Virus record (IMG/VR): IMGVR_UViG_2529292720_000001
Direction: 5' to 3' (one strand)
Length of the DNA: 12,088 nucleotides
Source of the DNA: a virus
Lineage: Monodnaviria > Loebvirae > Hofneiviricota > Faserviricetes > Tubulavirales > Inoviridae
Position numbers and translations under genes: made by a program. Under the pieces are notes generated by a model. That model searched no databases. It saw only the letters and a list, made by a program, of their open reading frames with translations, and had not been told where the DNA came from. Below, piece after piece: positions 1 to 12,088 of this stretch (within the stretch, counting starts at the first letter, position 1; the number at the start of each line of letters is the position of its first letter).

Positions 1-1455
1 TTATTGATTCGACTCATATGCACTCCATTCATCGCATACATGGGAAAAGGTTGATTTCAGGGCTTCGTTATCAATCACAATTCGCTGAAGATTGGCCGTA
101 TTAGCCTGCTGAGATAGAAATCTTTTAGCGTAAAGATCAGGCATATGGCTATTGTGACTCCAACCGCCAAGTAGCCGTAATTCATCCTTGGCTTCATCCA
201 TCAATCCAACGATAGAAAAGTCTATGGCTGCCAAGTGTGAGTTGGCCTTAATTTTTTGAAGTTTATCACGATAAATACGTTGAAGTGTTAAATAAGCCCA
301 AGTATGCCGCGTTATATGAGGCGAGATGCTTTCAATGGCATCATAATATTCATCTTTTTTATATTCAGGATACTGCACACTCATAATGTCATCAATACGG
401 GTAAAGATATCATAGACTGCATGGTATGACAGTGGCGGATGTAGTCTTTGGGTGGAAGTGAACAGAAAACTATGGGAGGCTTGAGGGCGGATTTTATGGA
501 TATATATATTTAGAAAATGAAAGTCCAGTTTATCTAATGCCAGCACCCGGTTTGCATAAACATTTTTTAATGAAGGCAATCTTTTTCGTTGATCCGAAAC
601 GTCGTCATCTACTGTGGTCACAATCAGGCTGAACTGATCCCCTCGGAGATTTGGTTTGATCGAATGACACTCCAAAAGCAGTAATTCACTGACACGCAAT
701 CCGTAATTTAAAAGCAATCTGCAAATCAGAAAATTACGTAGCTGGATTTCACCAGCGGGGAAGGGATTGAGTGGGTTTTTCTTTGAAATTGAACCGGGTG
801 TAATGATTTGGTAAAAAGCCATGACCATCTCAGCAGTCAGACTTCGAAAGCGTTTATGGGTCGTGCCATTGTTCATCTGACGAGAATGGGTAAGAGTACG
901 GAATTCTGCCTTATGTATCGATAAACGTCCCGTTAACTGCGTGGCAAGTCGTGTAAGCTCTTTAGGCGTGCCATCTATATATCTCGGCGAGATATACGTG
1001 TTAATCAAATATCTGATAAAACGAATAACCGAATGTACATGCCTGATATTTGTACAACGTTGAGGCGTGGTCTGCGTAGTAGACCTTATGGTTAACGCTG
1101 GTACATATAAATGCGTATTTTCCAGATAATGAAAAAAGGCTGTAAGTTCATCAATGGCAATCAATGGATTGTGGTTCGAGGAATAGAAACTGAAGCAAAA
1201 AGTCACACCATGTTTCTGGTGCCAGAATTCATAGAAAAACTTGAGCGCTTGAAGTGAAGCGGATTGCGTGGCTGATGAACGCAAAGCAAGATGGTCGATA
1301 AGATATATTAACGGATATAAAAGCGGCTGGCGCGTGTGAGTATCCATCAGTGCCCATAAACGCTGCCGTTGGTTGATATTGAGTTGTGTAAGTATGAACA
1401 CGCGGCACTTAACCTTATCAATGGTGTGGATATGAACAAAGTAACCGACAAACAT
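1..1455 (-). CDS. tyrosine recombinase / phage-type integrase (large, ~484-488 aa), start uncertain
   Basis: Long minus-strand ORF ending with TAA at 1-3. The translation carries the tyrosine-recombinase catalytic signature in canonical order: box I Arg (NYGLRVSELLLL), box II H-x-x-R-H (SPHITRHTWAY), then LGGWSHNSHMPDLYAKRF with the putative nucleophile Tyr. The ORF-track start at 1467 is a TTG; the first ATG is at 1453-1455 with GCAGGA 4 nt upstream; another in-frame ATG lies at 1345-1347. The gene lies outside the dif-bounded prophage. Confidence 0.7.
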   Translation of the reverse strand: MFVGYFVHIHTIDKVKCRVFILTQLNINQRQRLWALMDTHTRQPLLYPLIYLIDHLALRSSATQSASLQALKFFYEFWHQKHGVTFCFSFYSSNHNPLIAIDELTAFFHYLENTHLYVPALTIRSTTQTTPQRCTNIRHVHSVIRFIRYLINTYISPRYIDGTPKELTRLATQLTGRLSIHKAEFRTLTHSRQMNNGTTHKRFRSLTAEMVMAFYQIITPGSISKKNPLNPFPAGEIQLRNFLICRLLLNYGLRVSELLLLECHSIKPNLRGDQFSLIVTTVDDDVSDQRKRLPSLKNVYANRVLALDKLDFHFLNIYIHKIRPQASHSFLFTSTQRLHPPLSYHAVYDIFTRIDDIMSVQYPEYKKDEYYDAIESISPHITRHTWAYLTLQRIYRDKLQKIKANSHLAAIDFSIVGLMDEAKDELRLLGGWSHNSHMPDLYAKRFLSQQANTANLQRIVIDNEALKSTFSHVCDEWSAYESNQ

Positions 1456-1546
1456 AACGTCCTGCAAGAAGAAGATAGAGGGGTAGGTAAGTGTATGATT
1501 AATCGTATCCTGTGGCCGGTTATGAACTAAATGACCGACGGACTAA

Positions 1547-1574
1547 ATTTAACATAATATACATTATGCGCACC
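1547..1574 (-). other. dif: chromosomal dif site (XerC/XerD recombination site), exact 28-bp consensus
   Basis: The plus strand reads ATTTAACATAATATACATTATGCGCACC; its reverse complement is GGTGCGCATAA-TGTATA-TTATGTTAAAT, i.e. XerC arm, 6-bp central region and XerD arm of E. coli dif as I recall it, with no mismatch. Confidence 0.9.
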
Positions 1575-1785
1575 AATGGTAAGGATGGCAGAAACTGGTT
1601 GGAATCGTTGACACTGGGCGTCGACTGGTTACTATCGGCAATGATTCAAAATCATCCGTTTCTCCAAACGAATCAGAATCGAATGTCTGTCAACAGTAAG
1701 TGAACAAGCCTAACCTCATGACCTCACCAATCAGGCCTGTTCATCATCGTTACTAAGCAATGAATTACAGAAGGCATGAGCATTT

Positions 1786-2031
1786 ATGGACTTATCATAT
1801 CTAGCTGAAATGACGATATCAGAGGAAACACAGTTCTTGACTGTTTTTGAGCAGCAACTAGAACATGATGTCGGTGAAGCAGCCCGAGCCTGTCTTCTTC
1901 GTGGCGTCCCTATTTATTACGCTGAAAAAAATACGCCAGAAGGATGTGTCATTAAAGAGTATCCCGATGGTCGCAAGAAGCTGGTTAGTTTTATGACTGG
2001 CACTGAAAAAGTAGTTAAGATTAAAGTCTGA
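1786..2031 (+). CDS. hypothetical small acidic protein (81 aa)
   Basis: ORF-track ORF with ATG start. The Shine-Dalgarno is weak (AAGG about 11 nt upstream). The protein has no TM segment and no motif I recognise. It lies just inside the left att end of the prophage, convergent with the 82-aa ORF. Confidence 0.35.
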   Translation: MDLSYLAEMTISEETQFLTVFEQQLEHDVGEAARACLLRGVPIYYAEKNTPEGCVIKEYPDGRKKLVSFMTGTEKVVKIKV

Positions 2032-2181
2032 TACTTCCCTAGCCGCGCCGCAATTAACTCCAAAGAAAAATAGAGTACTGTTGCGGCTTGGCCAACGCCA
2101 GACAGCAACAAAAACAAGTTTTGTTACTGCCCGGCGTTTACGATAATTCCGTCAGCATGGAGTTTTAGCGGCTAAAAATGT

Positions 2182-2430
2182 TCACCACCACCATGCAAAC
2201 GGCTTGTTGCTGACCGGAAATGCGATGCCGTCAGCGTCACGACCACGTACAACCTGATTGAGAAGCTTTCTGACTTCACGGCGCTCTGGCCGGGTCATCA
2301 TCATATTGCGATACCAGGACGGCGATTTATCAAACCATCTGGCACAACTGGCAAAATGTGAACCTACACGACGATAAGACTTAAGGCGGCCACTGGGAAG
2401 TCGGTCACGCGCCTTATTTTTTACAGACAT
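2182..2430 (-). CDS. hypothetical small basic protein (82 aa, Arg/Lys-rich, C-terminal WWW)
   Basis: Minus-strand ORF with a good SD (AGAGGA, 6-nt spacer, ATG at 2430), located 88 nt downstream of the secretin gene in the same orientation. It is strongly basic (many R/K), consistent with a nucleic-acid-binding protein. Local GC looks higher than the rest of the prophage (eyeball estimate about 52%). Confidence 0.5.
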   Translation of the reverse strand: MSVKNKARDRLPSGRLKSYRRVGSHFASCARWFDKSPSWYRNMMMTRPERREVRKLLNQVVRGRDADGIAFPVSNKPFAWWW

Positions 2431-2518
2431 AATAAATCCTCTAAGTAACTGAATACCTAGAAGATGTCGTACTGTTCATACCCCATTAAAGTTAACGCCA
2501 TAATAAAAATCCATACAA

Positions 2519-3763
2519 TCAGTTCAGGTTGTCCCGGAACAGTTCACCGCTCCTCGCGGCGCTGCGGGGCGTCGCCCTGCTCCGGTCAACCTTTCTGACC
2601 TGAAGCATCACCATAATATCAGTCTTGTTGCTTTCACTGGTACGGGAACCGAAGACGCTCCAGCCGGAACTGGCCTTACTGTCTTTCTGTTCAGCAAGGC
2701 CACCAAGCAAAATAATATCACCATCTGCAAGGCTGACTTCGGTTGTTACATCACGCTTGATAAGGGTTGGCGAGTTATTGACGCCGGTTTCAGTGGTCAC
2801 AAAGTTGGAAAGCTGCTGCTGAATCTTGAGATCCATTGTCCGACTTTTGATTGATGGCGTCACGTTAAATAAAACACCGCTGGAACGATATTCAACGGAT
2901 TGCGTGGTCGTATTGTTATTCACCGTAACACTGCCCAGTACTGGCACATCAGAGCCGACTGAAAAAGACGCTGAGGCATTATTTTTTACCCGTAGTCGTG
3001 GCGCACTGACAACAGTAAAACGACTGTCGGTTTTCAGCAGATTGAAAATGGCATCAATGGAGCCGGTTCGAATATTGATAAAATTATCCAGTCCGGCAGC
3101 ACCTACTGAAATATTGAATTTATCAGACAAGATTTTAGCCGCTAAAAGAATACCGGAGCCGTCAGACTGCGAGGTCTGAACCTCAAAAACATAACCAGAA
3201 ACAACCACTTCATCACTCATCGTATCCAGCGAAGTGACCAGTGTTTTCAGGATGGCGATGTCCTCTTTCGTACCATAATAAACCAGAATATCACCGGTTC
3301 GATTGATGTAGTTGCTTGCCCCTGATGAACCTTTTAGCGAATCGTCAGAAATCACGGCTCCACTGTTATTGAAGGAGCCTGAAACGTAGCCGCCAAGAAT
3401 ATCAGACAGGTAGGCAACAGAACGGTACTGAGGCGTATAAGTCCATGTATAACGTGGCTTAACCGGCTCTTTCGGCGTATAGGGCGCGATAAAATCAACA
3501 CCCTTTTTCGTCCATATTCGAATGTTCATATTGCCAAGATAACGGGTTACAAATTCCCGTTCATCAATATCAGGTGTTAACCTGAATGTAATCATTCGTT
3601 CATCATTAACAAGCTGTGGATCTAGCATATACGGGACTTTAAGCACCTCACTATAAATAAGAGAAATAGCCTCCGGTAGCTTGACTTTATTTAATTCAAG
3701 CTCTGACCCTGCGAAAGCACATGAAGAAAATAGTAGCGTTAATGCGAGTAAAATCTTTTTCAT
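2519..3763 (-). CDS. filamentous phage pIV-like secretin (outer membrane export channel)
   Basis: 414 aa with an N-terminal signal peptide (MKKILLALTLLFSSCAFAG). The C-terminal half has the secretin-domain character (VVSAPRLRVKNNASASFSVGSDVPV...GGLAEQKDSK). Its ATG overlaps the stop of the upstream Zot-like gene (TAATG at 3761-3765), and it occupies the last position of the morphogenesis operon as gene IV does in Ff phages. Confidence 0.85.
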   Translation of the reverse strand: MKKILLALTLLFSSCAFAGSELELNKVKLPEAISLIYSEVLKVPYMLDPQLVNDERMITFRLTPDIDEREFVTRYLGNMNIRIWTKKGVDFIAPYTPKEPVKPRYTWTYTPQYRSVAYLSDILGGYVSGSFNNSGAVISDDSLKGSSGASNYINRTGDILVYYGTKEDIAILKTLVTSLDTMSDEVVVSGYVFEVQTSQSDGSGILLAAKILSDKFNISVGAAGLDNFINIRTGSIDAIFNLLKTDSRFTVVSAPRLRVKNNASASFSVGSDVPVLGSVTVNNNTTTQSVEYRSSGVLFNVTPSIKSRTMDLKIQQQLSNFVTTETGVNNSPTLIKRDVTTEVSLADGDIILLGGLAEQKDSKASSGWSVFGSRTSESNKTDIMVMLQVRKVDRSRATPRSAARSGELFRDNLN

Positions 3764-4788
3764 TATTTTTTCCCCGTATAAAGCGTCACACGCTCACCAT
3801 CAATAATTCCGCTCATCAACATCCCTTTATAATTAAAACTGGATGCAGGAACGGCACGCAAAACACCGGCACCGTTAACAAGAATCACAAACGCCCTGCC
3901 TTCACTGGTCATTCTCCCTGATATACGCCACTCGGTTGAAAGTGACGGTTCAGCTGGTTCTGAGGGAGTATCTGGTGCAGGAGTAGCAGCGGAAGAACGA
4001 AACATGGCCGCATCACGTACATCTGTTGTAGCCAAATCTGGCGAGGGATCGCTTCGGCCAAACGTGCTGAAAAATGAGTAAATCAGCCAGCCTGACCCGA
4101 TAAACATCAATGGAAAAAGCACAAGAAAGAACCTGACTTTGCCAGAATTCCAGATGCTCTGGCGTTTATCTGTCTGCTTTTCATTACCGTTATTTCCTTC
4201 ATAGCTTTTATAAAGTTCAAAAATATCAGGGTTATATTTATTGCGATAACTGGTGACGAGGTTGCTTTTATAGATTTTGTGGCCTGAATATACGTCAATG
4301 CAGTAATGATTATTCAGGCCCAACGCTTTCAGCTTGCGCATCCGGTAAGTTGTTTCTATTTTGTCTTTCAGAAAGCGAGCAATATTAGAAAGTGACTGAT
4401 TTACAATAACCAAATCACAGCTAATACCCGTTTCAGGGTGCGTAAAATGACGATGTTCAGCAATAAATGATTTCTTCTCAGCCGTCATATCCTTATCGCT
4501 ACCGAAGATTCGCCATGCTTCATCAATAACAATTAAATCACCAAACTGGCAAAAGCTCCCTTCCCCACCTTTAAAAGGAAAGAAATCTGCTTTAAGTACA
4601 TCATCATTATCCACAACAATAATTTCTCCCGTTGCATCAGGATAACGTTCGGTGATTTTATCTTTTTGTAAACCATAAATGTTCGTCACAACTCTCCGGC
4701 CGCTGGTAAATGCAGGAATAATGACATTGCAAACGGCTTCATAACTTTTTCCTGAGCCGGGTATGCCAATATATGCAGAAATAGCCAT
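3763..4788 (-). CDS. Zot-like / pI-like phage assembly ATPase
   Basis: 341 aa with an N-terminal Walker A motif (MAISAYIGIPGSGKSYEAV), comparable to the M13 pI N-terminus (GKLGSGKT), and a Walker B-like LIVIDEAW. A central TM segment (FFLVLFPLMFIGSGWLIYSFF) is followed by a Pro/Ser/Thr-rich C-terminal region. It sits between the pVI-like gene and the secretin gene. Confidence 0.9.
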   Translation of the reverse strand: MAISAYIGIPGSGKSYEAVCNVIIPAFTSGRRVVTNIYGLQKDKITERYPDATGEIIVVDNDDVLKADFFPFKGGEGSFCQFGDLIVIDEAWRIFGSDKDMTAEKKSFIAEHRHFTHPETGISCDLVIVNQSLSNIARFLKDKIETTYRMRKLKALGLNNHYCIDVYSGHKIYKSNLVTSYRNKYNPDIFELYKSYEGNNGNEKQTDKRQSIWNSGKVRFFLVLFPLMFIGSGWLIYSFFSTFGRSDPSPDLATTDVRDAAMFRSSAATPAPDTPSEPAEPSLSTEWRISGRMTSEGRAFVILVNGAGVLRAVPASSFNYKGMLMSGIIDGERVTLYTGKK

Positions 4789-4791
4789 AAC

Positions 4792-5079
4792 TCACCCTAT
4801 AACAGGAATACGTCGAATAATAAAACGAGTAGCCATTGAGGAGATAATCATACTAATCCCCTGTGGTAATTTACTCAGGTTAATGAAGTACCAGAATCCG
4901 TCTGATAAATTGGCAAACAGCGATGAGAGATTGCTTGAATCTGGCAGTAACTCAACAAGGATTTCAACGAAGCCCTGGACTACAAAATACAGCGCAAAGA
5001 ATACGAAGAATTTAATAATCAATGACCGGAATACAAAACCTAACAAAGTATTTAATGCACTAATCAGAATCCCAAACAT
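4792..5079 (-). CDS. pVI-like minor coat protein (small hydrophobic virion protein)
   Basis: 95 aa, very hydrophobic with multiple TM-like segments, placed between the pIII-like gene and the pI gene with 3-nt and 12-nt gaps. This position and size class match gene VI of Ff phages. Confidence 0.6.
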   Translation of the reverse strand: MFGILISALNTLLGFVFRSLIIKFFVFFALYFVVQGFVEILVELLPDSSNLSSLFANLSDGFWYFINLSKLPQGISMIISSMATRFIIRRIPVIG

Positions 5080-5091
5080 AGTTGCACTCCT

Positions 5092-6804
5092 TTAGGCACT
5101 CAGAATAATACGGAGCGCAACAAATCCCCATATAATCAGAAATATGGTTTCTACGGCGCTTCTGTTCTGCTCAATTAACGGACAATGGGAGTCAATTCTG
5201 TACTGGTGATTAAACACGCTGAATTCAACAACGGGGCAGGATGCTGAACGAGAGCCGATGTTAAATTCGTTTGTAAAAGGCAACAAGTTAATAATTGGCG
5301 TTAAAATATCTCTTGCCGTTGGCGTTTCTTCAAGCTCAGGCTCTTTTACACCGGGATCTTCTCCCAAATCTATATTGCCATTATTTCCAGTGTCAGATCC
5401 TGAGTTGTTATTAATGGTAATATCAATATTGACGTCAGCCCCTGCACTGTCAGATACAGGTGAAAGCATATCTAATAACGTTGGAGATAGCCTAAGTTCC
5501 GACATCGCAGAAGTTACTTCAGCCGGTGAAACCTCTTTAAACGGTAAGCCGTTATAATCGGCATTAACGGCAGCTTCAGACCACAGCTCGTTAATCATGT
5601 CGGCAAGAAGTGCTGGCGATACACTAACACTATCAAGATACTCCAGATAATCAATCATGGACTCAATATTTCCGGCCTCCAGTACTTCCGTCATGGCTTT
5701 ATATTTGGTATTGGTCCAGATAGTAAGCTCACTCTTTTCATCAATATCTTTTGCGGTGTAATCCTCTTTTTCAGGAACGGCGCAAATCGTCGAATATCCA
5801 CCATTTGACTGATTAGTCGTTTTACAAGGCGTGTTGTGATACTGATATTGCTTTCCTGCTGTTAAATAAGCAACGCTGTAATACATGGGAAGCCCTGCTA
5901 CATTTTCATACATGGGAATACCTGCGGGAAATGAAGATGCGGCCGGGTTGCTATACAAGTGTGTAATCTCAGGTATTTCATAAAATGAGGAAGGATAAGT
6001 AAACTTATAATTCTGTTCAGTAAAGGATACATCTCCATTACTGTTGACAACTTTATTCGTCACAGTGCGTTCAAAATTCGTTAGTGTTTCAGTATAAGTA
6101 CGCGAGTTATAGTCATTAAGATAATTTCTGGCAATTTCAGTTGGATTATCACCATAGTAATAAATTAGCTCTTTCGAATCCTGATAATAATAAAGCGCAT
6201 TATCTGGCGTGGAATATCCTGTTTCAACACCTACAACTGGAGAACCCGCATCCACATTATTACGACTAACATGAAGGATTACCGGACTTAATTCCTGTGG
6301 TTCAAAATTAACGGTTATCGTCTTACTTTCACCACTTTGACCACTGTACGTTACTTCATATAAATTATCGGAAATCTTTTTACCGTTAGTCATTACCATT
6401 ACCGAGCCGTCAGATGAACTCAAAGAAGACGGAACAAAAGATGATACAGCAGCAGCAATACCCGCCCACGTTGCAACACCGCTCATTTTGTATGATGAGG
6501 CAGCAGGCAAGTATTCGGCAGCATTAGCCGCAGCGCGGCCAACAAAAACACGGGTTGCTGTAAGCTGTGATGCCGTATAAATCGCATCATTGGCAGCAAA
6601 GCGACGAACAAGCACCCGGCCAACGACTTTAGGAATAACAGCCCGCGCAGCCACTGCTGCAATTGCTGGTACAAATGAATATGAATATCGGGGAAAGGAA
6701 ACCCAGAGAAAGGAAAAAATAAAGGAATAAACCGTCAGCCTCTTAGCCCAAGAATAACGACATAAGCTGAGACGATCCCCCATAAAAGGGAACCCAATTT
6801 CCAT
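5092..6804 (-). CDS. pIII-like adsorption / minor coat protein (start uncertain)
   Basis: 570-aa ORF directly after the major coat gene and its terminator. It has a Gly/Asn/Ser/Asp-rich linker (NNNSGSDTGNNGNIDLGEDPG) and a C-terminal hydrophobic anchor (AVETIFLIIWGFVALRIILSA), as pIII has. There is an SD (GGAG, 8-nt spacer) before the ATG at 6804. The first ~110 aa are Ala/Val-rich and atypical, so the true start or N-terminal domain organisation is uncertain. Confidence 0.7.
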   Translation of the reverse strand: MEIGFPFMGDRLSLCRYSWAKRLTVYSFIFSFLWVSFPRYSYSFVPAIAAVAARAVIPKVVGRVLVRRFAANDAIYTASQLTATRVFVGRAAANAAEYLPAASSYKMSGVATWAGIAAAVSSFVPSSLSSSDGSVMVMTNGKKISDNLYEVTYSGQSGESKTITVNFEPQELSPVILHVSRNNVDAGSPVVGVETGYSTPDNALYYYQDSKELIYYYGDNPTEIARNYLNDYNSRTYTETLTNFERTVTNKVVNSNGDVSFTEQNYKFTYPSSFYEIPEITHLYSNPAASSFPAGIPMYENVAGLPMYYSVAYLTAGKQYQYHNTPCKTTNQSNGGYSTICAVPEKEDYTAKDIDEKSELTIWTNTKYKAMTEVLEAGNIESMIDYLEYLDSVSVSPALLADMINELWSEAAVNADYNGLPFKEVSPAEVTSAMSELRLSPTLLDMLSPVSDSAGADVNIDITINNNSGSDTGNNGNIDLGEDPGVKEPELEETPTARDILTPIINLLPFTNEFNIGSRSASCPVVEFSVFNHQYRIDSHCPLIEQNRSAVETIFLIIWGFVALRIILSA

Positions 6805-6827
6805 AATTCAATCTCCATAATAACCTC

Positions 6828-6855
6828 AAGTAAAACGGGCGATATTGCATCGCCC
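6828..6855 (-). terminator. intrinsic terminator after the major coat protein gene
   Basis: On the minus strand a 7-bp GC-rich stem (GGGCGAT/ATCGCCC, plus 6837-6855) with a 5-nt loop is followed by GUUUUA. It lies 14 nt downstream of the coat gene stop, analogous to the terminator after gene VIII in Ff phages. Confidence 0.55.
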
Positions 6856-6868
6856 ATGAATAATGAAT

Positions 6869-7102
6869 TTATGCGGATTTAACGGTACGCAATACCCAGC
6901 GAACGCCAGCGACACCGGCATAAAGTGTTACCAGTGAAGCAGCAACGGCCATAATCGCAACCAGAACTGTACTGAAATCAATGCTGTTCGTCAGCGGCGA
7001 TAAATCAACACCACTTGATGCCGCTCCTTCTGCAGCGAAAGTCGCGCCAGAAACAGCCATTAATGCAGGTACAGCCAGAAAACTAACGATTTTTTTAAAC
7101 AT
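6869..7102 (-). CDS. major coat protein (pVIII-like)
   Basis: 77 aa. Signal peptide MFKKIVSFLAVPALMAVSGATFA with an A-x-A cleavage site; the predicted mature protein begins AEGAASSG (M13 mature pVIII begins AEGDDP). It has an amphipathic N-terminus, a hydrophobic helix and a basic C-terminus (RWVLRTVKSA). SD is GGAG with an 8-nt spacer. Confidence 0.85.
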   Translation of the reverse strand: MFKKIVSFLAVPALMAVSGATFAAEGAASSGVDLSPLTNSIDFSTVLVAIMAVAASLVTLYAGVAGVRWVLRTVKSA

Positions 7103-7136
7103 AACTCTATCTCCATTACATTTTAAAGGTTCGCAT

Positions 7137-7388
7137 TCAAGCAGTACGAACCATCTTTATTACCTGTCCCACACCTACAGAAAAAAGCCAGAGCAGCAGG
7201 ACAGAGCCAAAACCTAATGTCCAGTAATTTCCTATTGCAGAATAATCAATTTGATGAAATGGTTCAGAACGTACCATTATTGCCTGACATTCTTTTGCAT
7301 TGTTCGCATTACATAAATAACCTTCAATACGGTAACCATTTTCAGGAATATGATTATCAAACTGAATATCGAAACCTGATGTATCCAT
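7137..7388 (-). CDS. small membrane protein in the pVII/pIX position (possible minor coat protein)
   Basis: 83-aa ORF tightly packed between the ssb-like and major coat genes (2-nt gap upstream), with a C-terminal hydrophobic segment (WTLGFGSVLLLWLFSVGVGQVI). It is larger than Ff pVII/pIX, and an internal Met start is possible. Confidence 0.45.
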   Translation of the reverse strand: MDTSGFDIQFDNHIPENGYRIEGYLCNANNAKECQAIMVRSEPFHQIDYSAIGNYWTLGFGSVLLLWLFSVGVGQVIKMVRTA

Positions 7389-7390
7389 AA

Positions 7391-7708
7391 TCAGCCTTTT
7401 ATTTCAGTAATGCCGCCATCTGATGAAATGTTATAAGTTACTCCTTCCCTCCCCTCCATTGACCAGACGCGAACATATACAGGTATCTGGACTAACTTAC
7501 CGATAAAATTATTTGCCTGATTCATTACACCGGCATTAACAAGAGCCTGAGATACACGAATAATAATCTGGTCTTGCTTAGTGCCACCAAAACCATCAGG
7601 AATCTCTAAGCCAACACCAATTTCATTATAGTATCCCTGACCATTGACCTTATTACGCTGGCGAGCACCAAGCATTTTACCTTTTACAAAAAGACCATAA
7701 TTAGACAT
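7391..7708 (-). CDS. ssDNA-binding protein (pV-like), putative
   Basis: 105-aa ORF immediately downstream of rep with a strong SD (AAGGAGAG, ATG at 7708). Position and size fit gene V; no sequence motif I can name with certainty. Confidence 0.5.
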   Translation of the reverse strand: MSNYGLFVKGKMLGARQRNKVNGQGYYNEIGVGLEIPDGFGGTKQDQIIIRVSQALVNAGVMNQANNFIGKLVQIPVYVRVWSMEGREGVTYNISSDGGITEIKG

Positions 7709-7719
7709 ATCACTCTCCT

Positions 7720-8772
7720 TTAATGCCAGTTACTGGCATGTGAAATACGGTTATAATCGAAAATTAAACCTTTCTCATAAACCCATGATGGAATTTTGGC
7801 TGGTTTGGCTTCAAGAGTACGAACCAACGGAACAACGTTATTAGAATCCGGTGACTCACAATAAAAGTTAATATCTATTCCGAAAGAAAGTAATTCTTTA
7901 CGGTGTCGGTAGAATGTAGGTTTCGGTAACATCTCTTTCATGTTCGCGCCCTGCTTCCACAATAAATATGTAGACTGTATTTTTCTTGGGAGATTAATTA
8001 TTTTTTCATCAGTTAATATGGTATTTTGATTCATTTCTATTCTCCCTACATAGTCAGAGAATAATTTATTGGGCGTCTCAATATTCCAGCTATTACCAAG
8101 CGTAAGATTCAAATCAATTAATTCAGTTGTTCTTAATGTTAATTCAATGCGTAATTTATCTTTTGACCAGTCCAGTAAACCAGCTTTAACGAATTCGTCT
8201 GCCATCTGGTGCCCTTTTTTGCCAGATGTATGCTCATCATATTTTGAATAAAATTTCAGGCTCCAACGACGGGAGTTTTTCCCTAAGTAAACAGTGCCAC
8301 CTTTACCACAGGCGCGACCGTGGCGAGTTTTAGCTTTAAATTCTGCGGCATATAGCCATGCGCGGACATTTTCTAATGTTGACAATGAATACATATAGTT
8401 GATATCAATACGCGAGATCTTAAATTGCCCTGCCATTACCTGTCGATAGGATGAAAGATCATGAGGAATATGCAGTAATGCCAATATTCTGGCATAAGCT
8501 GTTAATACTAACCCTTGCAAATCATCGGAACCGATAACAGAGTGACCTTGCAAAAACTTTGACGGATTGCCGTCAATATAGAGATGTGTTGCCCGACCTT
8601 CGCCATCAGATCCAACAGATCTTACTTTCATAGTGGATTCATACGAACCGCGAACAGTCAACCGTTTTACTGTTTCCCACTCCACTGCACCGTCAGCATC
8701 AACGCTGACGACACTACCAGCCGGTAATGGTCGGTGTATGCAAGGTAGGATCCCGGTAAACCAGTCAATCAT
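7720..8772 (-). CDS. rolling-circle replication initiation protein (pII / RstA-like, phage CRI family)
   Basis: 350 aa with the N-terminal MIDWFTG motif typical of filamentous-phage replication initiators. SD is GAGG with a 6-nt spacer. It is the first gene of the minus-strand operon and is divergent from the HTH repressor, as rstA/rstR are in CTXphi-like phages. Confidence 0.8.
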   Translation of the reverse strand: MIDWFTGILPCIHRPLPAGSVVSVDADGAVEWETVKRLTVRGSYESTMKVRSVGSDGEGRATHLYIDGNPSKFLQGHSVIGSDDLQGLVLTAYARILALLHIPHDLSSYRQVMAGQFKISRIDINYMYSLSTLENVRAWLYAAEFKAKTRHGRACGKGGTVYLGKNSRRWSLKFYSKYDEHTSGKKGHQMADEFVKAGLLDWSKDKLRIELTLRTTELIDLNLTLGNSWNIETPNKLFSDYVGRIEMNQNTILTDEKIINLPRKIQSTYLLWKQGANMKEMLPKPTFYRHRKELLSFGIDINFYCESPDSNNVVPLVRTLEAKPAKIPSWVYEKGLIFDYNRISHASNWH

Positions 8773-8939
8773 GTATCGCCTCAGAGAACAATTTTGTGAC
8801 CAGAAAGCCTGTCAAGAGCTTATTAGTACCAATTCAGTCACACAAATGTACAACCCAAGATCTTACCTCTCAAGTGATTTTGTACTGGATAAGTGACATA
8901 TTTGTTCTTTTGAAATGGAGCAAAAAAGTAGGATATAGA
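8773..8939. promoter_or_regulatory. divergent control region between rep and repressor (candidate promoters/operators, possibly replication origin)
   Basis: 167-bp intergenic region. On the minus strand there is a perfect -35 hexamer TTGACA (plus 8810-8815), about 40 nt upstream of the rep ATG, with only a weak -10 candidate. GTGAC/GTCAC half-sites recur (TGTGAC at 8795-8800, GTCACA at 8837-8842, GTGACA at 8893-8898), and TTTGT(G/A)AC-like motifs recur at about 8792, 8846 and 8878. Confidence 0.45.
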
Positions 8940-9392
8940 ATGAGCAACAACTTCAACAGTAATGGCTACCCGGAAGAAATGGCAGAAGACATAGACTTAC
9001 AGCGGGCAGAAAGGATAAAAAAAGCGATCCTAAGCAAATTCACATACGAAAGGATGGAAGAACTGTCTGGCATCAACATTGGCACACTGAAACGGATCGC
9101 AAACGCACAGAGGGATGCGAAAATCAGTGAGCTGGAAAAAATTGCTGAAATCACTCAGACAGACATATTTGAACTGATTTTTGGCTCCAGTAGCAGTGAT
9201 ATCTACGATTCCAGCAAACGCTTCTTTGAGACGAGAAGTAAAGATGCGGCTCAGGCGGCTCAATTCATCATCTACAATCTTCGTACCCTTGATGATGAGG
9301 ACATCCTTTGTTTGGGGAGGGTTTCGAGTGCCTTGCAAACAGCAACAACATCAAGAAAATGGGATGAGCTTTTCGGGAAGAAGAAAGGCTGA
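8940..9392 (+). CDS. XRE-family helix-turn-helix transcriptional regulator (phage repressor candidate)
   Basis: ATG at 8940 preceded by AGGA (6-7 nt spacer); the ORF-track start at 8796 is an unsupported upstream extension. 150 aa with a predicted HTH (MEELSGINIGTLKRIANAQRDAKISELEKIAEITQTDIFEL). Divergent from rep. Confidence 0.75.
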   Translation: MSNNFNSNGYPEEMAEDIDLQRAERIKKAILSKFTYERMEELSGINIGTLKRIANAQRDAKISELEKIAEITQTDIFELIFGSSSSDIYDSSKRFFETRSKDAAQAAQFIIYNLRTLDDEDILCLGRVSSALQTATTSRKWDELFGKKKG

Positions 9393-9438
9393 GTCTCAGA
9401 AATGAGACAAACGTGCAGTATTACCAACACTGCACGTT
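9393..9438 (+). repeat. two adjacent stem-loops right after the repressor stop (6-bp GTCTCA/TGAGAC hairpin, then a perfect 10-bp inverted repeat AACGTGCAGT-N9-ACTGCACGTT)
   Basis: Read directly from the sequence (9393-9408 and 9410-9438). No immediate U-tract follows; ATTTTT lies about 13 nt downstream. It could be a terminator or attenuator, or a phage cis element. Confidence 0.5.
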
Positions 9439-9476
9439 CTGGATTGAGCGATTTTTAAACACCAGAAAAAGGGTAA

Positions 9477-9875
9477 ATGATGAACAAAACAGTGTATGTA
9501 CCAAGCTACTTCCAGCCTATCTACAAAGAAGTAACCATCAAAGTTCCTACCGGAAACACAAAACGATTCCTGGGTCTCATCGACATTGAAGAAAAAATCC
9601 GAAAAAGAGAAGTTATTCAGGATGGCTGGTCTGATTGCCAGATTGACGGGGAAAGACTCAATGAAGATGTTGGTCGAGCCATTAATAAACTTAATCGGGA
9701 AGGGTATGAGGTTATTTCAATAACCCCTGCTACCTCAGGAAGCTGGGCTTATAAATATAAACAAAACAGTATTCGTAATGGAAACGGTGATGGCAGTTAT
9801 GGATATGGTTACGGTTATTCATACACCGAAGGCGTTATGATTCTGGCAAAGAAAATTGAGAAAGAGGACGTCTGA
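9477..9875 (+). CDS. hypothetical soluble protein (131-132 aa) with a Gly/Tyr-rich low-complexity insert; first gene of the accessory operon
   Basis: ORF with tandem ATGs at 9477 and 9480; AAGGG lies 3 and 6 nt upstream, so 9480 is the more likely start. It contains NGNGDGSYGYGYGYSYTEG. The 60-nt sample counted just downstream (9878-9937, start of the next gene) is about 33% GC. The stop is 2 nt before the next gene start. Confidence 0.6.
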   Translation: MMNKTVYVPSYFQPIYKEVTIKVPTGNTKRFLGLIDIEEKIRKREVIQDGWSDCQIDGERLNEDVGRAINKLNREGYEVISITPATSGSWAYKYKQNSIRNGNGDGSYGYGYGYSYTEGVMILAKKIEKEDV

Positions 9876-9877
9876 TA

Positions 9878-10240
9878 ATGGATTTTATCCGTAAAACTTT
9901 GGGTGGATTAAAAGCAAGTTATTATATCCGTCACTTCGTTTTTGGTGCATTAATTTCAACTTTCTTTATTTACATGTCAATGCAAAATCCTGGAGGGGTG
10001 AAGGTTGAAAATATAATTTTCTTTTTTATCAATGCGTTACTCTACCCTTACGCAAGGTTTGTATATGAGCAAATCATTGGGTTCATCATGGGTGAAAATG
10101 TCTTTTTCATCAACGTCATAGTGATGCTAACTGCCAAGATAATTACGATGTGTTTATGCTGGATATTTTCAGTATTCATAGCGCCAGTTGGACTGATATA
10201 TCTCTACTATTATCATTCAAAAGCTGATAAACAATTATAG
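9878..10240 (+). CDS. hypothetical small integral membrane protein (120 aa, 3-4 predicted TM helices)
   Basis: Translationally coupled to the upstream ORF (TGATAATG). Hydrophobic stretches: IRHFVFGALISTFFIYMSM, NIIFFFINALLYPYARFVY, VFFINVIVMLTAKIITMCLCWIFSVFIAPVGLIYLYYY. AT-rich. Confidence 0.6.
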   Translation: MDFIRKTLGGLKASYYIRHFVFGALISTFFIYMSMQNPGGVKVENIIFFFINALLYPYARFVYEQIIGFIMGENVFFINVIVMLTAKIITMCLCWIFSVFIAPVGLIYLYYYHSKADKQL

Positions 10241-10251
10241 AGGAAAATAAT

Positions 10252-10320
10252 ATGAGCATGGAAACAGGGGTTGCTATTATTATCTTGCTTGTGATTGTTG
10301 GTAAACTTATAGGACTTTAA
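10252..10320 (+). CDS. candidate 22-aa hydrophobic micropeptide (MSMETGVAIIILLVIVGKLIGL), not in the ORF track
   Basis: ATG at 10252 preceded by AGGAAA with a 7-nt spacer, starting 12 nt after the stop of the membrane-protein gene. It encodes a single TM helix and has a TAA stop at 10318-10320. The bidirectional terminator follows about 40 nt downstream. Confidence 0.35.
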   Translation: MSMETGVAIIILLVIVGKLIGL

Positions 10321-10353
10321 CATAAAACTGGTTCGCACAATGACGTTATGTGT

Positions 10354-10394
10354 AAAAAGGCCGCTGCGGGAGACATTTTAGCAGCGACCTTTTC
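10354..10394. terminator. bidirectional intrinsic terminator between the prophage plus-strand operon and hipA
   Basis: 9-bp stem GGCCGCTGC / GCAGCGACC (10359-10367 and 10381-10389) with a 13-nt loop. On the minus-strand RNA every position pairs (one G-U wobble) and UUUUU follows (plus AAAAA at 10354-10358). On the plus-strand RNA there is one C-A mismatch, followed by UUUU (10390-10393). Confidence 0.6.
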
Positions 10395-10395
10395 A

Positions 10396-10423
10396 ACATA
10401 ACGAGTCGTACATTATGCGCACC
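10396..10423 (-). other. hybrid dif-like site (prophage-chromosome junction; XerC arm intact, central region and XerD side phage-derived)
   Basis: The minus strand reads GGTGCGCATAA-TGTACGACTCGTTATGT. The XerC arm is identical to dif and the central region shares its first 4 bp, but the XerD arm is replaced. A XerD-arm-like TTATGTTGAAA (8/11 match to TTATGTTAAAT) is displaced by 5 bp, giving an ~11-bp spacer. Confidence 0.8.
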
Positions 10424-10499
10424 AGTGTAAACCAAGGAAGAATCCAGTCGTTGGCGGTCATGATTGTCGTGCTCATTAACAACGACCAAACCCCATATC

Positions 10500-11822
10500 T
10501 CACTTACTACCGTATTCTCGGCTTAACCGTCCATGCAACCTCAACACATTGGTTTCAACTGCCGTCACCACGTTCTCCGGAAAATCTGTCGGTAATGAAG
10601 TCTTCACGTTATCCAGTGCTGCCGGAATCATTCTGGCAAAGTCACTTAGGATTTCATGCATCTGCACTTCCGGGAATCTCAGCACCTTTGCTGTCGCCAA
10701 AAAATGTCGCGGATAAATTTTATCGATTGCCGTTTTTTTGCCTTTGGATGCGTTAAGCCCCATTGCCAGTTTGAGATCGCTGATGTGTATTCCCGTACCG
10801 CCAAGGACCGGAAATGCTGAAATGATGTCGTAAAATGGCGTGAGTCGATAACTGCCGCCAGCCTGAATAAATACGGAGAAGTTTTTTGCATGGCCATCCG
10901 TTGCGCCAATCAACCACTGGAAGACCTGGAATTTCATAAAATCATAACGATCGCGAAGCGCCTCGCTGGACCCCATCAAAAACGCCATGATCCGCGCGAT
11001 GCCTGGGCCTCCATCTGATTCATATTTCACAGATGAAGGTAAACCGAATGTCTGACACATATCCTCCTGTGGCAAGCGAAGTAAAACCGTTCGCTCAGTA
11101 TTCCAACGCCTGTCAAAACGTTCGACCGCTAACGCGCGCACCCTTCCCGCTTTAATGATTTCTGCGTCCGGAACATTCAACCCAAGTTCTTTCGCCAGCA
11201 GCAGACAGTAATACTCATTATCAACGCTTTGGCTGAGATCGAGCGTCGCATTGGGCTGCCTGATTTCGCCAATCGGTAATTTAATGATGTGCGTCGTCGG
11301 CGTTATTCCTTTCGGAATGCACCAGTCATTGCCTATTCTAAGCAGCGCTGTCTTCTCCTGCGCGCCAGCAACCGAGATGCGAAAGTCATTTTCTTCTCTA
11401 ATCATGCCCAGAGGGATATCTGCTTTATAAGCCGTTAATACTTCTTCAAGCCTGGCTTCAGTAAGCTTTTCCCATGCCATTATCGGGCGCGTTATGGTTT
11501 CATTTTCGGGTAATAACGTTACGGCACCAACGCTGTCTCGCCCTATTTCTGACAATAAATCAAACGGTTGTCTGGATTTAGCATGATAACGTTTAACGAT
11601 CCGGTCACGTACAATCGGGCTATCGGGTAACAGGTTATCGAAGAAGTTAAATACGGCATCTGAGGTGATATTCCCCCTCTGCAATGGCAGCGAAAGTGAC
11701 AACGGTCTGGCATAACGGCTGGCTAACCACTCCGGTGCATACTTAAAGGTGTGCGCGCCGTTGGCTAACTTCGTTAACTCGCCTACCCGCTGGTTGTTCA
11801 TCCAAGTGACAAGTTTAGGCAT
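10500..11822 (-). CDS. hipA: serine/threonine kinase toxin HipA
   Basis: The translation from the ATG at 11820-11822 (MPKLVTWMNNQRVGELTKLANGAHTFKYAPEW...REYGSK, 440 aa) matches E. coli HipA as I recall it. The 459-aa ORF-track version is an in-frame upstream extension into hipB. The hipB stop and hipA start overlap (TAATG). Confidence 0.95.
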   Translation of the reverse strand: MPKLVTWMNNQRVGELTKLANGAHTFKYAPEWLASRYARPLSLSLPLQRGNITSDAVFNFFDNLLPDSPIVRDRIVKRYHAKSRQPFDLLSEIGRDSVGAVTLLPENETITRPIMAWEKLTEARLEEVLTAYKADIPLGMIREENDFRISVAGAQEKTALLRIGNDWCIPKGITPTTHIIKLPIGEIRQPNATLDLSQSVDNEYYCLLLAKELGLNVPDAEIIKAGRVRALAVERFDRRWNTERTVLLRLPQEDMCQTFGLPSSVKYESDGGPGIARIMAFLMGSSEALRDRYDFMKFQVFQWLIGATDGHAKNFSVFIQAGGSYRLTPFYDIISAFPVLGGTGIHISDLKLAMGLNASKGKKTAIDKIYPRHFLATAKVLRFPEVQMHEILSDFARMIPAALDNVKTSLPTDFPENVVTAVETNVLRLHGRLSREYGSK

Positions 11823-12088
11823 TACCACTCCAGATCTTGCTGTTCTGTTGATTCTGGCGAGGCATTTTTCGTGTCGCATAGTGTCATTGAGAGTTCAAGC
11901 GACTGTAAAATCTTAAAAAATGTCGTGAGCGTGGTATTGTCAGGGTTGTTTTCGAAATTGGAAATTGTCGCCTGCTTAATGCCAATTTTTTTCGCCAGCT
12001 CGCTCTGCGTCCAGCCATTTTGCTGGCGAACCAGTTTCATTGCATTCGCCAATTGCGTTGGGCTATAGATCTTCTGAAAGCTCATCAT
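11822..12088 (-). CDS. hipB: HipB antitoxin / HTH transcriptional repressor
   Basis: 88 aa (MMSFQKIYSPTQLANAMKLVRQQNGWTQSELAKKIGIKQATISNFENNPDNTTL...) matching E. coli HipB as I recall it. The start codon is the last 3 nt of the window. It overlaps hipA by 1 nt. Confidence 0.95.
   Translation of the reverse strand: MMSFQKIYSPTQLANAMKLVRQQNGWTQSELAKKIGIKQATISNFENNPDNTTLTTFFKILQSLELSMTLCDTKNASPESTEQQDLEW

Follow-up and report, generated by a model that had tools for sequence, protein, structure and literature searches.

The question raised by this locus is how a filamentous phage genome in which no recombinase is recognised has come to be inserted at dif, beside hipA, in the Escherichia coli chromosome, and whether the manner of its insertion is the one described for CTX-phi. 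[quoted passage not shown]

The prophage and its junctions with the chromosome

At the lower-coordinate end of the insert, positions 1547-1574 (minus strand) are the exact 28-bp E. coli dif, GGTGCGCATAATGTATATTATGTTAAAT, with 0 mismatches and as the single match in the window, as a sequence-only reading of this DNA had stated; none of 200 shuffles (0/200) matched it, even when up to 3 mismatches were allowed. An exact dif is found in the equivalent prophage-adjoining position in 3 other prophage loci. At the other end there is a hybrid site, which on the minus strand consists of the XerC arm GGTGCGCATAA (10413-10423), an 11-bp spacer TGTACGACTCG (10402-10412) and a XerD-like arm TTATGTTGAAA (10391-10401), 9 of the 11 bases of the latter being as in dif. 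The earlier description of this site as having the XerC arm of dif and a longer spacer holds, while its extent, given as 10396-10423, has to be enlarged slightly to 10391-10423. A 16-bp direct repeat, TACATTATGCGCACCA, can be read at 1560-1575 and 10409-10424, and its spacing of 8,849 bp is also the period of the tandem copies in strain DA33137.

The hybrid site lies on the hipA side and the perfect dif on the side away from hipA, as had been noticed before. The hipA stop codon (10500-10502) is 76 bases from the hybrid site, and in K-12 the dif (2988-3015 of the K-12 locus read) is likewise 76 bases from the hipA stop, in agreement with the position given for K-12 in the sequence-only reading. 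An empty hipA-dif junction, which had been proposed as a check on the insertion, is present in K-12 and in about 5,300 other E. coli genomes, with the match to the window beginning exactly at 10409.

It is noted that the central region begins with TGTA in the window variant versus TGTATA in dif. The form TGTG in the circular CUS-1-type record and in a Brenneria contig, as opposed to the dif-like TGTA in the integrated copies first compared, was suspected to be a footprint of strand exchange; this idea was dropped when a census put the TGTG form in 17 chromosomes too, making it a polymorphism.

All genes of the insert are full length, and together they make up a complete inovirus genome (Table 1). 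The gene set comprises G2P, G5P, the major coat protein, a pIII-like protein, a DUF2523/pVI-like protein, Zot/pI, a pIV secretin and an HTH regulator, and no ORF in 1575-10408 matched a recombinase family in the Pfam and phrog profile searches, so that the suggestion of an integrase-free, complete inovirus genome of about 8.8 kb is confirmed by the 8,849-bp unit. The structure matches of the secretin are f1 pIV (7ofh, E 4e-10) and the GspD structures of T2SS. The pIII-position protein, which is 99-100% identical in CUS-1 and Ypf-phi, is probably, judged by its position, the homologue of puvA, the role of which is described in PMC4266046. The regulator gives an HTH_3 match of E 7e-4 (under the Pfam cut-off) and a match to phrog_3557, transcriptional regulator, of E 1.4e-68, and it stands where rstR is placed in CTX-phi in a review (PMC4266046). 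Rfam and tRNA scans of the window gave nothing; the counts from promoter and terminator scans were within or moderately above shuffle expectation, the only addition being the inverted repeat at 9409-9439.

Table 1. Features of the window (positions of the whole stretch; E values and identities as obtained in the searches)
Feature	Position	Strand	Evidence or remark
Tyrosine-recombinase-like gene	1-1401	-	Flank, outside the prophage
Intact dif	1547-1574	-	Prophage 3' end; XerD arm 1547-1557, central 6 bp 1558-1563, XerC arm 1564-1574
Conserved non-coding phage-genome end, adjoining attP XerC arm	1575-1745	-	85-89% identical to CUS-1, Ypf-phi and Klebsiella copies; next 320 bp unrelated
orf81, small variant-specific ORF in replaced module 1746-2066	1786-2031	+	Full-length phrog_21003 match, E 4e-59
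orf82, small ORF of the CUS-1/Ypf-phi core	2182-2430	-	Amino-acid identity 90% to CUS-1/Ypf-phi, 80% to Brenneria
pIV-type secretin, outer-membrane export channel (by homology)	2519-3763	-	Pfam Secretin E 2.5e-24; phrog_1012 'assembly (protein IV of M13)' E 3e-137
pI/Zot-family assembly ATPase	3763-4788	-	Pfam Zot E 2.2e-26
pVI-like minor coat protein (DUF2523)	4792-5079	-	Pfam DUF2523 E 4e-19; phrog_974
pIII-position adsorption protein, 520 aa per RefSeq (open frame extends to 6804)	5092-6654	-	phrog_3942 E 4.5e-253
Major coat protein (pVIII-like)	6869-7102	-	phrog_2186 virion structural protein E 4e-29; Pfam Phage_Coat_B weak, E 0.0016
83-aa membrane protein, pVII/pIX position	7137-7388	-	phrog_3679 E 3e-32; 'membrane protein' in RefSeq copies
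G5P single-stranded DNA-binding protein	7391-7708	-	Pfam Putative_G5P E 1.2e-52
G2P rolling-circle initiator with C-terminal gene X domain	7720-8772	-	Pfam Phage_CRI E 1e-72, G2P_X_C E 3.5e-34
Replaced regulatory module: divergent control region 8773-8939 and HTH regulator gene 8940-9392	8773-9392	+	HTH_3, phrog_3557
Candidate (+)-strand origin for G2P: 31-nt imperfect inverted repeat GAACGTGCAGTGTTGGTAATACTGCACGTTT	9409-9439	-	Invariant island in divergent DNA
orf132, cargo gene 1: soluble alpha/beta protein with Gly/Tyr-rich loop	9477-9875	+	
orf120, cargo gene 2: small four-helix membrane protein (predicted)	9878-10240	+	Model pLDDT 77
attP2, inverted dif-like site with 5-bp spacer: GGTTCGCACAA TGACG TTATGTGTAAA	10330-10356	+	Sequence reading; inverted repeats; pairs with hybrid site in predicted fold
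Apical stem-loop of the attP hairpin	10357-10390	.	13-nt inverted repeat, 92% complementary
dif/phage hybrid junction	10391-10423	-	XerC arm common to dif and attP, then attP1 11-bp central region and phage XerD-like arm
Chromosomal flank, hipA 10500-11822 and hipB 11822-12088	10500-12088	-	Pfam HipA_C, Couple_hipA, HTH_3; RefSeq annotation of matching genomes

The attachment site and the mode of integration

The attP obtained by joining 10380-10423 to 1575 onward, as the sequence-only reading had proposed, is carried exactly by a sister phage, the circular 9,565-bp record NZ_CP128883.1. The reconstituted attP thus exists, but the second, inverted site at 10330-10356 had been overlooked. The phage (+) strand corresponds to the minus strand of the window and bears two inverted dif-like sites, attP1 with a central region of 11 nt and attP2 with one of 5 nt. 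It is predicted that attP2 and the hybrid site pair into a forked hairpin (z = -7.0), and relatives in Photorhabdus and Brenneria retain this hairpin and show compensatory changes, those in the apical stem being found in Brenneria. The attP is therefore predicted to be a CTX-type folded single-strand site, rather than a single duplex one, in which the hairpin mimics dif. Note that a single-stranded attP of the CTX-phi type has already been proposed for CUS-1/Ypf-phi (PMC4266046, PMC4246890).

Based on the analogy with CTX-phi and on the predicted fold, the integration would be carried out by the host XerC on the folded strand, as follows. XerC would swap one pair of strands between the attP hairpin and dif at the border of the XerC arm and the central region, where the first central-region bases are common to attP and dif, and replication would then resolve the junction. 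The arrangement in the window is the product expected, with the hybrid site, the loop and attP2 on the hipA side and the regenerated perfect dif on the far side; since the dif is regenerated perfectly, chromosome dimer resolution would be preserved. The duplex phage sites are expected not to be Xer substrates, and because neither of them would be one, the integration would be irreversible.

The element is like CTX-phi of Vibrio cholerae in that it has no recombinase of its own, in that its insertion at dif has left an intact dif and a hybrid site with a common XerC side, in that tandem arrays occur, and, according to the computed fold, in that a long and a short inverted dif-like site fold into a forked (+)-strand hairpin, attP(+), with central regions of 12 bp in CTX-phi versus 11 bp here and of 5-7 bp versus 5 bp. 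In both, the replication gene has a divergent (putative) repressor gene as its neighbour, and the cargo adjoining attP is variable. By contrast, the arms are about 90 nt apart in CTX-phi versus about 34 nt in the window prophage, and the cargo of the latter is not a known toxin. The secretin used by CTX-phi is EpsD of the host, whereas the window prophage encodes its own pIV secretin, and no CTX-phi match was obtained by tblastn of G2P and the secretin against the phage collection.

Another way of integration would be that of VGJ-phi, in which the double-stranded replicative form recombines reversibly via the duplex attP at 10391-10423 and attP2 is irrelevant. VGJ-type elements, too, should show identity on the XerC side and leave a regenerated dif (table in PMC4246890), and the duplex 10391-10423 does have good XerC and XerD-like arms. 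However, the central region here is 11 bp, as compared with 6 bp in dif and with the 29-bp VGJ-phi attP, and CTX-phi attP1, with its central region of 12 bp, was reported to be unsuitable for duplex recombination. In addition, the phage has a further, inverted site, the hairpin of which is conserved and covaries, and CUS-1/Ypf-phi is classed as CTX-type in PMC4246890. We thus consider the VGJ-type integration improbable.

Relationship to CUS-1, Ypf-phi and other filamentous phages

The kinship with CUS-1/Ypf-phi that had been suspected is borne out by the core of the element (2067-8772, 6.7 kb), which has 97.8-98.0% nucleotide identity to NU14 CUS-1, NZ_CP128883.1 and Y. pestis Ypf-phi. Judged by these sequences, the window prophage is a mosaic member of the described CUS-1/Ypf-phi family, with three modules swapped relative to CUS-1/Ypf-phi, namely the regulator with its control region, the two-gene cargo beside attP and the small ORF near dif. 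The core identity is present, while a shared regulator and shared terminal accessory ORFs are not, orf132, orf120 and orf81 being absent from both CUS-1 and Ypf-phi. This does not exclude membership, because CUS-1 and Ypf-phi themselves have been found to be unlike each other in their terminal ORFs. As such, the prophage is an ordinary, though mosaic, example of a described family, and the current understanding is unchanged by it.

The CUS-1 copy compared here is that in strain NU14, CUS-1 being known from E. coli O18:K1:H7 (Gonzalez et al. 2002, cited in PMC4266046). It has the same dif insertion site, orientation, regenerated dif and attP hairpin architecture as the window prophage, tandem arrays occur in both, and the core proteins are 97-100% identical except orf82 (90%). 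By contrast, the nucleotide match ends at 8772, and within 8773-9391 the control region is unrelated and the regulator protein is only 40% identical to that of CUS-1/Ypf-phi versus 99% to a Klebsiella spallanzanii copy. CUS-1 also has its own attP-proximal orf1/orf1a where the window has orf132 and orf120, and 1746-2066 is replaced in the window, giving the opposite-strand orf81.

Ypf-phi (Derbise et al. 2007; PMC4266046) resembles the window prophage in its core (97.8% identical), its genome size (8.7-8.85 kb), its modules for replication, morphogenesis and secretion, among whose genes is a secretin, and its inverted XerC/D sites; at its 3' end, too, dif is intact. It differs in that the dif of the Y. 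pestis host is one base off in the XerC arm (GGTGCACATAA) and in that its regulator and its ORFs next to attL (YPO2271/2272) are unlike those of the window. The combination of Xer integration with an own pIV secretin, to which attention had been drawn, is indeed found in the window prophage, but it is not new, as Ypf-phi has the secretion module YPO2279-YPO2280 (PMC4266046).

A nucleotide search of 50,697 phage records gave no match, and at the protein level only phage I2-2 (Lineavirus I22) and metagenomic inoviruses matched; for G2P, tblastn against these records gave only I2-2 and one metagenomic virus. The gene order II-V-(VII/IX)-VIII-III-VI-I-IV is that of I2-2 and Ff, and G2P is 58% identical to I2-2 gene II. 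Unlike the window element, I2-2 and Ff are non-integrating, without attP, repressor or cargo, and there is no detectable nucleotide similarity to them outside the replication module. The label "Ff-like" given before to the morphogenesis module is thus apt for the gene order, including the own pIV secretin, but in its replication module the phage resembles I2-2, and its secretin and f1 pIV are distant relatives only.

The candidate replication origin and the lone copy

The 31-nt repeat at 9409-9439 is common to CUS-1, Ypf-phi, Brenneria and the I2-2 intergenic region, amid otherwise divergent DNA, while the Ff origin core is absent from the window even at up to 3 mismatches. From this one conserved inverted repeat, present in an I2-2 record that carries no origin annotation, we infer that 9409-9439 may be the origin recognised by G2P. 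New genomes would then be made by G2P rolling-circle replication from 9409-9439 toward lower coordinates, and from a single copy the replication would exit through dif into the chromosome. Because 9440-10408 would be missed in this way, a lone prophage, unlike the tandem arrays of other strains, would probably be unable to make complete genomes, a conclusion at two removes from the sequence. Tandem arrays are common for the window variant and its relatives; the window itself has one copy.

The single copy and this CTX-type logic, by which a lone copy gives no genome production, would also fit a decaying, immobile remnant without phage activity that is kept by vertical descent only, as would the internal stop in the 83-aa gene of the relative DA33137 and the heavy deletions in Y. 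enterocolitica relatives (PMC3161016). Against this, all genes are full length in the window, and copies that are 99.9-100% identical occur in human, chicken, wastewater and marine-sediment strains, with three left flanks and often in tandem. Near-identical copies in such varied sources and flanks argue that a functional phage has spread horizontally in recent times, and that the insert is a remnant is very unlikely. We give virtually no credence to the idea that the gene at 1-1401, a Phage_integrase-like ORF ending 146 bp from dif, is the integrase of the element and the dif-like repeats its attachment sites, since genome comparisons contradict it, the gene being unlinked to the phage elsewhere.

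Distribution and implications

The exact window variant is found in 12 of 5,426 complete E. coli genomes. The RefSeq labels 'GspD', 'zonular occludens toxin family' and 'hypothetical' hide what is one dif-integrated filamentous prophage, and the value of the present analysis lies in its correct annotation. For CUS-1 and Ypf-phi, links to fitness or virulence in E. coli K1 and Y. pestis have been described, the effects being modest (PMC4266046), and a rare variant with another regulator and other cargo is therefore a natural comparison for identifying the module behind the effect. Moreover, the family makes it possible to study in enterobacteria, with E. coli genetics at hand, the CTX-type single-strand Xer integration known from Vibrio.

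The cargo genes

The two-gene cargo beside attP is also found in inoviruses of Y. enterocolitica, Brenneria and Photorhabdus. For orf120 there are 141 homologues across Proteobacteria, nearly all of them unnamed or 'hypothetical', and its model gave no informative fold match. Outside inoviruses, the gene neighbourhoods of distant homologues show that orf132 and orf120 are not an obligate pair. PADLOC defence models gave no convincing match to the small ORFs and the flank gene, the best being at E ~1e-3.

A Y. enterocolitica contig, which is likened to, rather than equated with, the prophage PhiYep-1 (PMC3161016), has 99.7% identity to the segment 9426-10427 with the origin side, orf132, orf120 and attP. 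By contrast, the remaining backbone of that contig is another inovirus, with nucleotide identity of 66-75% and a secretin of 420 aa.

A joint reading of these data, which we put forward tentatively as possible rather than probable, is that the window prophage represents a distinct CUS-1/Ypf-phi immunity type, that the origin-cargo-attP cassette is mobile as a unit and that orf132/orf120 give a phenotype to the lysogen. The immunity type is suggested because the whole regulator and control region are exchanged, as in the CTX-phi types defined by rstR. The cassette would have moved between differing inovirus backbones of E. coli, Yersinia, Brenneria and Photorhabdus. As to the phenotype, the widely distributed orf132/orf120 might bring about, e.g., membrane-level protection or superinfection exclusion.

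Identity of the element

It is noted that the sequence-only reading was correct both in what it observed and in how it interpreted it, and that the element belongs, as a mosaic, to a family that has been described before. Its suggested kinship with CUS-1 and Ypf-phi holds, with the backbone (2067-8772) having 97.8-98.0% identity to the CUS-1 prophages that lie in tandem in strain NU14 (O18:K1:H7), to the circular record of TUM14759 and to the tandem Ypf-phi of Y. pestis, and with a matching layout. The layout is the same as that reviewed for Ypf-phi, which has an 8.7-kb genome, modules for replication, morphogenesis and secretion, an rstR-like regulator, inverted XerC/D sites and, at the 3' end, a regenerated intact dif (PMC4266046). 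That phages of this group integrate via Xer and also encode their own secretin is already known, and a specialist would find no surprise in the prophage. What is new is modest, namely an exchanged regulator module, a mobile origin-cargo-attP cassette, a candidate origin of I2-2 type and the prediction that the single prophage copy in the window would be unable to produce phage.

On the minus strand the genes run in the order G2P, G5P, an 83-aa membrane protein, the major coat protein, the pIII-position protein, a DUF2523/pVI-like protein, the Zot/pI ATPase and the secretin, the last matching the structures of f1 pIV (7ofh, E 4e-10) and of T2SS GspD. A recombinase-like ORF was sought among the ORFs of the insert and none was found. 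The gene of the 83-aa protein, intact in the window, is interrupted by a stop codon in each of the two tandem copies in strain DA33137 (L003 11563-11814).

Features of the window and their coordinates
Feature	Coordinates	Strand	Sequence or content
Tyrosine-recombinase-like ORF, left of dif	1-1401	minus
Canonical E. coli dif	1547-1574	minus	GGTGCGCATAATGTATATTATGTTAAAT
Direct repeat, 16 bp	1560-1575; 10409-10424		TACATTATGCGCACCA
Replaced segment 1	1746-2066		contains orf81
83-aa membrane-protein gene	7137-7388	minus
pIII-position protein		minus	520 aa
G2P		minus	Phage_CRI and G2P_X_C domains
Replaced segment 2	8773-9391		control region and HTH regulator
HTH regulator and two small ORFs		opposite to G2P-secretin genes
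Imperfect inverted repeat, 31 nt	9409-9439
Replaced segment 3	9484-10325		contains orf132 and orf120
Second inverted dif-like site	10330-10356		GGTTCGCACAA TGACG TTATGTGTAAA
Hybrid site near hipA	10423-10391	minus	GGTGCGCATAA / TGTACGACTCG / TTATGTTGAAA

Integration site and predicted attP fold

The dif and the 16-bp repeat noticed from the sequence are exact, the dif match being the only one in the window (0 of 200 shuffles gave a match). The hybrid site had been placed at 10396-10423, which is the right location but too short an extent, because the full site starts at 10391; its XerC arm is perfect, its spacer has 11 bp and its XerD-like arm agrees with dif at 9 of 11 positions. The 8,849 bp between the repeats equal the period with which this element recurs in tandem in DA33137. 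The distance of 76 bases from the end of the hybrid site to the hipA stop codon, also as claimed, is identical to that of the empty dif in K-12. Moreover, the attP join that had been predicted occurs exactly in the circular TUM14759 record (9,565 bp, deposited as a plasmid), where attP is uninterrupted (...TTTTCAACATAACGAGTCGCACATTATGCGCACCAATGGTAAGG...) and which we read as a replicative form.

Overlooked before was the second inverted dif-like site, with a 34-nt stem-loop between it and the hybrid site. The phage (+) strand, which is the minus strand of the window, is also the one in which the structural genes read in sense. In its predicted fold the dif-like sites pair arm to arm, and their central regions, being unequal, leave an asymmetric internal loop. 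This fold has a predicted energy of -29.7 kcal/mol (z = -7.0; for the CUS-1 circle, z = -7.15), and the structure is kept in six sequences from E. coli, Brenneria alni and Photorhabdus tasmaniensis, with both sides changed in five pairs. The attP(+) of CTX-phi has the same architecture, with central regions of 12 bp in attP1 versus 5-7 bp in attP2 (PMC4246890); there the single-stranded DNA is integrated via XerC alone, replication completes the process and the integration is irreversible, and the literature assigns Ypf-phi and CUS-1 to this class (PMC4246890; PMC3442271). The arrangement in the window is the product predicted by the CTX-phi model: next to hipA lie the hybrid site, the loop and attP2, and the other end has a perfect dif. 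As far as sequence can show, the prophage would work like CTX-phi, with the catalytic steps of integration presumably being of that type.

Candidate origin and exchanged modules

G2P has 58% identity to gene II of phage I2-2, besides which no close relative was found among 50,697 phage records. The 31-nt inverted repeat is unchanged across CUS-1, Ypf-phi, the Brenneria phage and the intergenic region of I2-2, while the DNA around it is otherwise divergent; we propose it as a candidate (+)-strand origin.

Compared with CUS-1 and Ypf-phi, which themselves have unrelated terminal ORF pairs (PMC4266046), the prophage has three replaced segments. Its HTH regulator shares 40% identity with that of CUS-1/Ypf-phi and 99% with a copy from Klebsiella spallanzanii. 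The stretch 9426-10427, from the origin side through orf132 and orf120 to attP, has 99.7% identity to a Y. enterocolitica contig (L024 1-1002), the remaining inovirus genes of which have only 66-75% identity and form a different backbone; this points to a recent exchange of the module between genera. To the Brenneria and Photorhabdus relatives this stretch has 76-78% identity. Each of the two cargo proteins falls in a broad family whose members lack annotation. Elsewhere the two do not form an obligate pair, and a fold search with their predicted structures gave no informative match. A remote homologue of orf120 in Variovorax (L021 711-6384) is encoded downstream of a ShlB/TpsB two-partner-secretion gene, with small ORFs that lack annotation around it; toxin/immunity arrays typically have such surroundings, which may hint at what orf120 does.

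Flanks of dif

In strain 0H25 (L005 2104-7401), the recombinase-like ORF left of dif is the last of three overlapping genes abutting dif, which encode a 788-aa unknown protein and integrases of 516 and 466 aa; a multi-recombinase island may end here, directly beside dif. K-12 (L004 2970-2988), DA33137/WP9 (L003 5955-5973) and the window (1530-1547) all differ to the left of dif, starting at the first base beyond the XerD arm. Since an insertion of CTX type should spare the left side, another process diversifies it. In some strains (L005 7575-12903; L006 22850-25620) an islet with an ISNCY/ISLad2 transposase and a defence-like FRG-domain or SIR2_2-domain protein separates hipA from dif or from the phage hybrid site; in L006 its end (25497-25570) is what is left of a CUS-1-like phage, namely attP2, the loop and the XerD arm.

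Distribution

Among 5,426 complete E. coli genomes, 167 have CUS-1-like DNA and 12 have the cargo of the window variant (at least 99% identity), the latter with a median of 2 copies per genome; these 12 isolates came from human, chicken, wastewater and sediment sources. Tandem CUS-1-like prophages are also integrated in the 248-kb IncFIB/IncHI1B plasmid NZ_CP132684.1 of K. pneumoniae (L023 3600-15300), adjoining a dif-like site (3440-3467, ATTTAACATAA CGTACA TTATGCGCACC), so a large plasmid can carry a filamentous phage. The large E. coli plasmids CP099215.1, CP099211.1 and NZ_CP078136.1 have remnants of 67-70 nt (hits H145-H147, also H30) with 87-88% identity to the attP2-loop-attP1 segment (about 10331-10400). 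Finally, the contig JARKOR010000214.1 goes under the label of a Candidatus Nanosynbacter MAG. It has E. coli hipBA (97.6% identity) and a dif-integrated inovirus, and almost certainly comes from E. coli and was mis-binned.
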